From a virus (taxonomy: Duplodnaviria; Heunggongvirae; Uroviricota; Caudoviricetes), in IMG/VR virus record IMGVR_UViG_2718218402_000007, positions 1-41,142 of that record: a DNA stretch of 41,142 bases. The stretch is one strand, 5' to 3'. The position numbers and the translations under genes were made by a program. The notes under the pieces were generated by a model. The model saw nothing but the letters and a program-made list of their open reading frames with translations. It did not search any database and was not told the DNA's origin. Positions 35,190-36,147 of this stretch are shown here, piece by piece. Within the stretch, counting starts at the first letter, position 1, and each line of letters starts with the position of its first letter.

Positions 35190-35192
35190 ACA

Positions 35193-35264
35193 ATATGTAC
35201 CTCCGGTGTACATATTACATGATTGAAATGAACCTTCAAGATACTTGTACCTTAACGGTACAAG
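35193..35264. promoter_or_regulatory. Right operator region between the cro-like and cI-like genes
   Basis: Two 17-bp sites of the form TGTAC-N7-GTACA at 35196-35212 and 35246-35262, each inside a longer palindrome (ATATGTAC...GTACATAT; CTTGTAC...GTACAAG). Confidence 0.7.
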
Positions 35265-35279
35265 GGTTTTAATTTCGTT

Positions 35280-35954
35280 ATGAAAACAATCCATGACATC
35301 CGGCGGTCTAACGCCAGAAAACTGAGAGATGGTGTTGGCGGGAATTCTTCCTTTGCCACTATGATTGATCGCGAGCCAACCCAGACCAGCAGGTTTATGG
35401 GGGATGGTGCTACTAAAAATATCGGTGACAGCATGGCACGACACATCGAAAAATGTTTCGACCTGCCTGTCGGATGGCTCGATCAAGAACACCAGACAAC
35501 GAACATCACAAAAAAACCTGATGTTTCAATCACTAATAAACAAATCACATTAGTCCCTGTCATATCATGGGTACAGGCCGGAGCATGGAAAGAAGTTGGA
35601 TATTCTGAGGTTGATTTGAGCACAGCAGAAACGTATCCCTGCCCTGTACCCTGTGGGGAAATGACTTATATCTTGCGGGTGATAGGTGATTCAATGATTG
35701 ATGAGTACCGCCCGGGAGACATGATTTTTGTCGATCCTGAAGTACCTGCCTGCCACGGTGACGACGTTATTGCATTGATGCACGATACAGGCGAAACCAC
35801 CTTCAAAAGGTTGATAGAAGATGGGACACAGCGTTATCTCAAAGCGTTAAACCCAAACTGGCCTGAGCCTTACATTAAGATCAACGGTAATTGCTCTATA
35901 ATTGGCACAGTGATTTTCTCAGGAAAACCAAGAAGATACAAAATCAAAGCCTAA
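35280..35954 (+). CDS. cI: cI-like prophage repressor (HTH plus S24 LexA-type autocleavage domain)
   Basis: 224 aa; C-terminal S24-like domain with GDSM and downstream Lys; ATG sits directly after the operator region, suggesting a leaderless transcript. Confidence 0.85.
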   Translation: MKTIHDIRRSNARKLRDGVGGNSSFATMIDREPTQTSRFMGDGATKNIGDSMARHIEKCFDLPVGWLDQEHQTTNITKKPDVSITNKQITLVPVISWVQAGAWKEVGYSEVDLSTAETYPCPVPCGEMTYILRVIGDSMIDEYRPGDMIFVDPEVPACHGDDVIALMHDTGETTFKRLIEDGTQRYLKALNPNWPEPYIKINGNCSIIGTVIFSGKPRRYKIKA

Positions 35955-35966
35955 TCAATGTTTATG

Positions 35967-35990
35967 AACCTGCTTCGGCAGGTTTTTTTA
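35967..35990 (+). terminator. Intrinsic terminator after the repressor gene
   Basis: Stem AACCTGC / GCAGGTT with TTCG loop followed by a run of eight T. Confidence 0.8.
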
Positions 35991-35993
35991 TAC

Positions 35994-36037
35994 TTGACAA
36001 TGTACCTTTGAGATACATAATGTACCCAAGCGAAACA
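35994..36037 (+). promoter_or_regulatory. Candidate early-left promoter (PL-like) with overlapping operator half-sites
   Basis: TTGACA (35994-35999), 16-bp spacer, CATAAT (36016-36021). TGTACctttgagATACA (36001-36017) and TGTACccaagcgAAACA (36021-36037) resemble the 17-bp operators. Confidence 0.6.
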
Positions 36038-36147
36038 ACGAACAGGCAGGACGCCCACGAAGTAGCCGCCTGGGGCATATGAAGTCCAGGATGATTCGTT
36101 GAGTCATGTTGTGCCACCAGGCACTCATGTTAAAGCAGGTGTATGAA

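Follow-up and report, generated by a model that had tools for sequence, protein, structure and literature searches.

The closest described relatives of the locus analyzed here are the immunity region of e14, a prophage of Escherichia coli K-12 MG1655, and those of the Shigella flexneri phages SfV and SfIV. In K-12, the e14 repressor gene ymfK is among five leaderless E. coli mRNAs found by differential RNA-seq, with transcription starting on the A of the ATG (start site RVS_(I)-1202156, identical to the gene start, leader 0 nt; PMC4681348 and its supplement); three independent screens in K-12 score ymfK as essential (PMC10350078), and DNA damage induces most of the e14 genes (PMC11228462). For SfV, the GenBank record marks a "putative operator region" that corresponds to 35195-35263 of the DNA studied here, a 41,142-nt stretch from a virus of the Caudoviricetes (Duplodnaviria; Heunggongvirae; Uroviricota; IMG/VR record IMGVR_UViG_2718218402_000007, positions 1 to 41,142), which we refer to as the window. 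A first-pass annotation, made from the sequence alone, had placed at 35190-36040 an immunity switch built on 17-bp TGTAC-N7-GTACA palindromes; its observation is confirmed, and its interpretation is supported apart from the number of sites in the right operator (OR). We read the locus as a lambda-type bistable immunity switch of the kind found in K-12 e14, SfV, and SfIV, and give this reading a probability of roughly 0.88. The switch is already known, with an operator region annotated in SfV and a leaderless start published for e14; our contribution is at most a precise site map backed by comparison, which supplies coordinates for sites that had been annotated loosely.

The repressor encoded in the window is 100% identical to YmfK (CohE) of MG1655, its Cro-like partner agrees with K-12 YmfT at 66/67 positions (stop counted), and the 90-bp OR is identical in the two prophages. 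The repressor terminator, the leftward promoter (PL), and the first site of the left operator (OL1) are likewise identical in e14, and the second left site (OL2) differs by one spacer base. Over 34950-36100 (1,151 bp), the DNA is 98.1% identical to SfV and 98.8% identical to SfIV, whose immunity regions show only point differences from that of the window, and ~96% identical to coliphages 2H10, Ayreon, and cdtI and to a set of Stx2c phages. The surroundings also follow SfV, in which orf33-orf30 lie across the switch from a cII-like orf36, an "immunity region" orf37, and a replication gene; its record annotates no PL promoter, no OL sites, and no individual operators. After the leader RNA described below, e14 continues with ymfJ, whereas the window has SfV-type genes from orf33 onward, and e14 is defective, whereas the window prophage appears complete. 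Because the repressor and OR are identical to those of e14 and the DNA is 98-99% identical to SfV and SfIV, the locus is the e14/SfV immunity region; by sequence it belongs to the e14/SfV immunity type (predicted YmfK/CohE specificity), with the same repressor and the same operators. This type is very common in prophages of E. coli and Shigella: the region occurs in 1323/5426 complete E. coli genomes, about one quarter, where RefSeq names the genes ymfK and ymfT.

Putative operator sites and their conservation

The features of the region are collected in Table 1. Both palindromes that had been noticed between the divergent cro-like and cI-like genes (O1 and O3) are perfect copies of the 17-bp core TGTAC-N7-GTACA, and the two related sites described on the promoter behind the repressor terminator are present as OL1 and OL2. 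The statement that OR holds only two clear sites did not survive comparison, which brought out a conserved, degenerate third site (O2), easily overlooked by eye. The proposed motif search across the 41-kb window returned, at one mismatch or fewer, only O1, O3, and OL1; these are three matches where 0.65 are expected, a number reached by 2/100 shuffled windows, and all three lie within 840 bp. At the two-mismatch level, 12 matches compare with 11.98 by chance, so OL2 must rest on its conservation in relatives. A weight matrix trained solely on sites from other genomes, and then applied to the window, placed the five sites among its top six hits; four of them rank first, with scores of 22.6 (OL1, the highest in the window), 22.4, 20.0, and 11.6, and O2 scores 8.7. 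The remaining hit of the six, inside cI (35645-35661), is attributed to chance, since it is not kept at synonymous positions in nine relatives, and a hit in orf33 (36232-36248), which lies outside the immunity module and is missing from e14, is treated in the same way. A separate palindrome, TTGAA-N7-TTCAA at 35223-35239, was considered as a Cro site and rejected, being conserved in no relative.

To compare the OR footprint across genera, we used 13 relatives, namely Edwardsiella phage EPP-1, prophages of enteric sources (Atlantibacter, Enterobacter, Pantoea, Trabulsiella, Rahnella, Serratia, Entomohabitans, and an Enterobacteriaceae metagenome-assembled genome), and representatives from Halomonas and Pseudomonas, whose repressors are 75-86% identical to that of the window (enterics) or ~50-60% identical in the N-terminal domain. 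All 13 share the order O1, 16/17 bp, O2, O3, and then the repressor ATG after a further 17/18 bp, or 20 bp in Halomonas; O2 adjoins O3 directly, except in the three distant members, where the two overlap by 1 bp. O1 is kept as TGTACCTCC-N3-xTACA beside the cro ATG in 12/13 relatives, and the Halomonas copy begins AGTAC; the retention of TGTACCTCC is explained by the cro ribosome-binding site GGAGG, which sits inside the O1 spacer. O3 is kept as TGTACC-N5-GGTACA, with a central 5 bp that differs in most of the 13. O2 reads TGAACC...AAG.xACT in 10 enteric relatives, and the Pseudomonas and Halomonas copies have a complete half-site, TGTACCGTCAAGGTTCT. The left operator follows the same pattern in 10 enteric relatives, where the succession of terminator, TTGACA, a, OL1, and TAAT is kept while spacers vary, and where OL2 is recognizable in most after TAA, 20 bp from OL1, as TGTACC-N..-AAG-xxACA.

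Variation within the immunity type points in the same direction. A first IMG/VR scan had yielded only 100%-identical repressors, and these fed the population analysis rather than the analysis of divergence: across 81 IMG/VR and E. coli loci with an identical repressor, 7/60 half-site positions vary, compared with 13/25 spacer positions, and at OL1 polymorphism is confined to the spacer. The absence of the palindromes from homologous regions carrying the same repressor had been named as a result that would overturn the proposal; the sites are present at 81/81 of these loci. The recognition helix gives a further test, as every repressor with the helix DRE(P/S)TQxSR has TGTAC sites, and more distant homologues with other helices (L099, L102, L104, L160, and the cI of H-19B) show different palindromes at this position, such as GTAGC-N5-GCTAC. 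Lastly, in 105 IMG/VR loci that carry the same leader RNA downstream of PL, a TGTAC-N7-GTACA upstream of the leader is accompanied by a YmfK-like gene in 17/17 cases, and where the site is absent the gene is absent too in 87/88, which indicates that the sites travel with the repressor gene and not with the downstream module. The sole exception, L210 (IMG/VR UViG_2531839374_000010), carries a tandem duplication of a 20-bp OL unit, caatgtaccccatggacaca, upstream of its leader RNA; this natural variant has three OL-like sites with altered right halves beside a repressor whose N-terminal domain is 99% identical. These four independent comparative tests strongly support the reading of the palindromes as operators.

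Table 1. Predicted features of the immunity region, in window positions
Feature	Position	Strand	Sequence or description
cII-like regulator, YmfL family	34394-34957	-	second gene of the PR operon
cro-like gene	34989-35189	-	66 aa; YmfT/CroE of e14; annotated cro in SfV
Putative operator O1 (OR1-like)	35196-35212		TGTACCTCCGGTGTACA; perfect core match
Predicted promoter PR	35212-35239	-	-35 TTGAAG (35239->35234), 16-bp spacer, -10 TAATAT (35217->35212)
Putative operator O2 (OR2-like, degenerate)	35229-35245		TGAACCTTCAAGATACT; 3 core mismatches; position kept in relatives
Repressor promoter (PRM-like)	35245-35280	+	-35 TTGTAC (35245-35250), 17 bp, -10 TTTAAT (35268-35273)
Putative operator O3 (OR3-like)	35246-35262		TGTACCTTAACGGTACA; perfect core match
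CI-type repressor gene	35280-35954	+	224 aa; YmfK/CohE of e14; cI of SfV
Intrinsic terminator of repressor gene	35966-35992	+	GAACCTGCTTCGGCAGGTT (35966-35985), then T7; terminator scan
PL-like promoter	35994-36021	+	TTGACA-16 bp-CATAAT; 11/12 consensus matches
Putative operator OL1	36001-36017		TGTACCTTTGAGATACA; 1 core mismatch
Putative operator OL2 (weaker)	36021-36037		TGTACCCAAGCGAAACA; 2 core mismatches
Structured leader RNA of PL transcript	36031-36106	+	~76 nt; covariance model R1 91.6 bits

Proteins, promoters, and predicted regulation

The cro-like and cI-like genes are divergent and 90 bp apart, an arrangement that is the same in all relatives examined. The repressor matches Peptidase_S24 in Pfam (E 1.5e-26), and its C-terminal domain aligns with that of lambda cI through VQAG/VQAG, GDSM/GNSM, and TFKRL/TFKKL, features that predict a self-cleaving LexA/S24 domain with an Ala-Gly site and a Ser-Lys dyad. 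Residues 1-80 gave no Pfam match; a profile built from 17 sequences of the repressor N terminus, run against sequences of the Protein Data Bank (PDB), matched over residues 1-76 the Rep protein of Salmonella phage SPC32H (5d50; E 1.1e-12) and also matched the N-terminal domains of phage CI proteins 8c3l and 7nkv (E ~4e-5), with HigA-type helix-turn-helix antitoxins non-significant (E 0.1-0.2). The homology with SPC32H Rep is limited to the N-terminal 76 residues of its 199-aa chain, and a second, weak match in that chain is again to the N-terminal profile. This part of the repressor is read as a helix-turn-helix DNA-binding domain. For the Cro-like protein, the Pfam matches to YdaS_toxin (E 1.5e-5) and HTH_3 (E 0.0065) do not reach the curated cut-offs, and the next gene of its operon matches Phage_CP76 in Pfam (E 1.6e-13) and the NCBIfam equivalog phage_reg_YmfL (E 1e-49).

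The repressor-maintenance promoter (PRM) can be placed from the mapped ymfK start, which corresponds to 35280 in the window and fixes the -10 and -35 elements listed in Table 1; the 0-nt leader of the identical K-12 gene also bears out the suggestion that the repressor gene is leaderless. The geometry xTGTAC-N17-xxxAAT-N6/7-ATG is kept in relatives, Pseudomonas phages included. Relative to this start, O3 extends from -34 to -18 and overlaps the -35 element and spacer of PRM, and O2 and O1 are centered at -43 and -76. On the opposite strand, the rightward promoter (PR), read from the sequence, would start near 35205 and give cro a leader of ~16 nt; a -35 of the form TTGxxG, a spacer, and a -10 of the form xAxAAT adjoining O1 are visible in most of 14 relatives, with weaker hexamers in some. 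O1 takes in the final -10 base of PR together with its predicted start and, on the minus strand, the cro Shine-Dalgarno sequence GGAGG; O2 overlaps the PR -35. The OR sites are thus several, related to one another, and predicted to overlap PR and PRM differentially.

A second operator set lies downstream of the repressor gene on a predicted promoter that is co-directional with it. The repressor terminator, a strong intrinsic one, is annotated in SfV and in phage Ayreon and is kept in relatives, and the near-consensus promoter reported directly behind it is present as described, at a position that is annotated as a promoter in Ayreon. PL would start near 36028; OL1 then lies in the spacer between its -35 and -10 (-27 to -11), and OL2 runs from the last base of the -10 (-7 to +10). 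The interval between the cI stop and the terminator holds no ORF, which agrees with the earlier remark that no rex-type genes follow cI.

The arrangement resembles that of lambda in many respects. Lambda also has divergent cI and cro genes; three OR sites, OR1- and OR2-like on PR and OR3-like on PRM, with the middle site centered near -42/-43 of PRM; a leaderless cI mRNA; OL sites on a PL that is co-directional with cI; and a homologous S24 C-terminal domain. The operator sequence, on the other hand, is unrelated (TGTAC-N7-GTACA in the window, TATCACCGC... in lambda), and the OR sites are spaced 33 + 17 bp from center to center, compared with 24 + 23 bp in lambda. Unlike lambda OR3, the OR3-like site of the window is a perfect palindrome. 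At OL, no more than two sites are evident; rexAB and N/nutL are absent, the N-terminal domain of the repressor belongs to a helix-turn-helix subfamily other than lambda's and closest in the PDB to SPC32H Rep, and Cro belongs to the YdaS type. Half-sites of the TGTAC/GTACA type, with a shorter spacer, also occur in the PL region of HK022 (L168, minus strand, ~880-800), for example TGAACTTTAAGTACA. The N-terminal domain of the HK022 repressor showed no similarity to that of YmfK; as the two domains are unrelated, we do not claim homology from these half-sites, and the likeness is possibly convergent.

We propose that, in lysogeny, YmfK/CohE is made from its leaderless mRNA and would bind the 17-bp sites as a dimer that reads the half-site TGTAC(C). 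Occupation of O1, which covers the PR -10, start, and ribosome-binding site, and of O2, on the -35, would keep the operon of cro, the cII-like gene, and replication off. O2, at -43 of PRM, is placed as OR2 is in lambda, where bound cI activates PRM, and may serve the same end here, while binding to O3, on the PRM -35 and spacer, would limit repressor synthesis at high concentration. Occupation of OL1 and OL2 would block transcription toward the xis/int end. On DNA damage, RecA-stimulated self-cleavage by the S24 domain would release both early promoters, and Cro (YmfT) would next occupy these sites, presumably beginning with O3, and shut off repressor synthesis. The sites themselves, with their layout, conservation, and joint inheritance with the repressor, are observed, as are the repressor's domains, and the leaderless start and the essentiality of ymfK are published; what we infer is the assignment of proteins to sites, the ranking of the sites by affinity, cooperative binding, activation from O2, and where PR and PL start. 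The switch reading also explains why ymfK scores as essential, as is expected of an active repressor that holds lethal prophage genes off, and self-cleavage of YmfK would offer a simpler, ready explanation of e14 induction by DNA damage than weak LexA boxes.

Several points weigh against this reading. The accessible literature, which excludes the SfV 2002 and e14 2004 papers, yielded no direct binding data for YmfK or YmfT (electrophoretic mobility shift assay, footprint, or chromatin immunoprecipitation), and a text search of it for TGTACC together with operator returned nothing relevant. PR and PRM are both poor promoters, each with 8/12 consensus matches (PR is too weak for a consensus scan), and of the two only the PRM start is mapped. 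O2 has three mismatches and overlaps the PR -35, so that part of its conservation could reflect promoter constraint. The perfect palindrome at O3, unlike the weak OR3 of lambda, and the 33/17-bp spacing may give an order of occupancy that differs from lambda's. Furthermore, a 2024 study ascribes e14 induction to weak LexA boxes and SspA, not to repressor cleavage (PMC11228462).

Competing explanations

The alternative that survives best is that OR has just two true operators, O1 and O3, and that 35229-35245 is kept only as the -35 region of the cro promoter. The three core mismatches of O2 fit this view, as does its matrix score of 8.7, since the best hits of shuffled windows average 10.5; moreover, the conserved CAAG of O2 is, on the opposite strand, the TTG of the PR -35. 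Promoter constraint would not, however, be expected to preserve the left half TGAACC, which lies in the promoter spacer and is nevertheless invariant in 10 enterics; in Pseudomonas and Halomonas this half is the full consensus TGTACC. The register of O2 to O3 is also fixed, adjoining or with a 1-bp overlap, and OL likewise pairs a strong site with a weaker neighbor. We consider a two-operator OR unlikely, if still worth keeping in mind, and retain three OR sites in the proposed switch.

The palindromes might instead be bound by the Cro-like YmfT only, with the CI-like repressor reading another sequence. In all relatives examined the two genes are co-inherited, so comparison by itself does not reveal which protein reads the sites. 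Neither the 90-bp OR nor PL, however, contains another conserved repeated motif, the TTGAA-N7-TTCAA palindrome being unconserved; the repressor must also act at PL, where the TGTAC sites are the only ones found. To our knowledge, both proteins share operators in every characterized lambda-type switch. On these grounds a Cro-only role appears very improbable, and sharing of the sites by YmfK and YmfT is preferred.

Slightly less probable again, and in our judgment quite implausible, is that host LexA acts on weak LexA boxes as the main regulator of the early promoters, as has been proposed for K-12 e14, the TGTAC palindromes being incidental. Azidothymidine (AZT) induction of e14 genes is lost in lexA3, and weak LexA boxes have been predicted in e14 (PMC11228462). 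Neither OR (35190-35279) nor PL/OL (35990-36040) contains a CTGT-N8-ACAG with two or fewer mismatches, however, and the palindromes have the spacing TGT-N11-ACA, not the TGT-N8-ACA of LexA, and co-vary and co-travel with the prophage repressor. A lexA(Ind-) host also impairs induction of lambda-type prophages, as RecA is not amplified; dependence on LexA thus does not separate the LexA-box model from repressor cleavage. Elsewhere in the window, perfect LexA-box-like CTGT-N8-ACAG sequences occur at 26916-26931 and 34279-34294, where ~0.6 are expected in 41 kb by our estimate, a number that is not significant alone. That the palindromes arose by chance or serve a purely structural role as hairpins or terminators, without regulatory function, is already excluded by the comparative data: a terminator scan does flag O3 with its T-rich tail as terminator-like, but there is no upstream plus-strand transcript for O3 to terminate, the low-mismatch matches are clustered and exceed chance, and half-sites are kept across genera while spacers vary.

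Leader RNA and neighboring features

Immediately behind the switch, and not part of it, lies a structured leader RNA, a separate mosaic module. Only a few nt separate it from the predicted PL start. An invariant core, AGGCAGGACGCCCACGAAGUAGCCGCC, is accompanied by two covarying stems (P1 and P3) and a conserved GGAUGA joiner. In an alignment of 43 distinct copies, 95.5% of stem cells are paired, and 122 cells carry double changes; shuffles give 37.5 and slid controls no more than 22. Phages of the same immunity are homologous up to 36037, the right end of OL2, and ~36033-36100 is matched by another, much wider set of phages, including SfII, ST64B, phiNP, ZF40, and Yersinia, Klebsiella, and Pantoea phages. 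At 113 IMG/VR loci, the RNA follows a TTGAC-type promoter at a distance of 5-25 nt, and the operator-like repeats flanking these promoters are of many kinds, lambda-like ones included; the RNA is common to prophages of many immunity types, K-12 e14 among them. Covariance model R1 finds one copy in the window.

No Rfam family matches this RNA, and a text search of the accessible literature for its core sequence returned nothing relevant. The put RNAs of HK022 and HK639 are similar in lying just after PL and in consisting of stem-loops of ~70 nt (PMC9378689; HK639 annotation), but R1 gave no hit in either put region at E values up to 10, and blastn-short against them found nothing. The leader resembles these RNAs in neither sequence nor covariance model and is present as a single copy, and it is no detectable member of the put family. 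The analogy to an antiterminator that acts in cis on RNA polymerase is one of position only: the leader directly follows PL, and the plus strand beyond it has terminator-like structures (for example, a DicF-like 3' hairpin, ~36843-36889). A cis-acting antitermination or stabilizing leader is a reasonable guess. That it represents an undescribed class of cis-acting leader, such as a put-like, protein-independent processive antiterminator in the slot that nutL fills in lambda and putL in HK022, is a tentative and rather doubtful proposal. The RNA may merit its own study.

Farther along the plus strand, 36666-36889 resembles the Rfam sRNA family STnc100 at 43.4 bits (E 8e-8), short of the gathering score of 47, and its 3' hairpin and T-run (36827-36881) weakly match DicF. 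Because this terminator-like structure is within the PL transcript, PL transcription must pass it to reach the xis/int end. Between the leader and this structure, an 81-aa ORF on the minus strand (36341-36586) overlaps the 3' end of orf33 (36127-36423, plus strand); phage Ayreon annotates a minus-strand coding sequence at ~36341-36586, whereas SfV has only the plus-strand gene there.

On the other side of the switch, a C4 antisense RNA (33849-33936, minus strand, 82 bits) and isrK (33961-34037, minus strand, 64 bits) both lie inside an Ash-family ORF (33561-34397, minus strand) annotated in SfV as the "immunity region" orf37. SfV is reported to have a second, termination-based immunity system (Roberts et al. 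2007, as cited in PMC3475682), and it looks as if the C4/isrK region corresponds to it. Toward the right end of the window, a 387-aa ORF (38521-39684, plus strand), presumably the integrase gene, stops 18 bp before a tRNA gene (39702-39774, minus strand), and this junction is probably the prophage end and attachment site.

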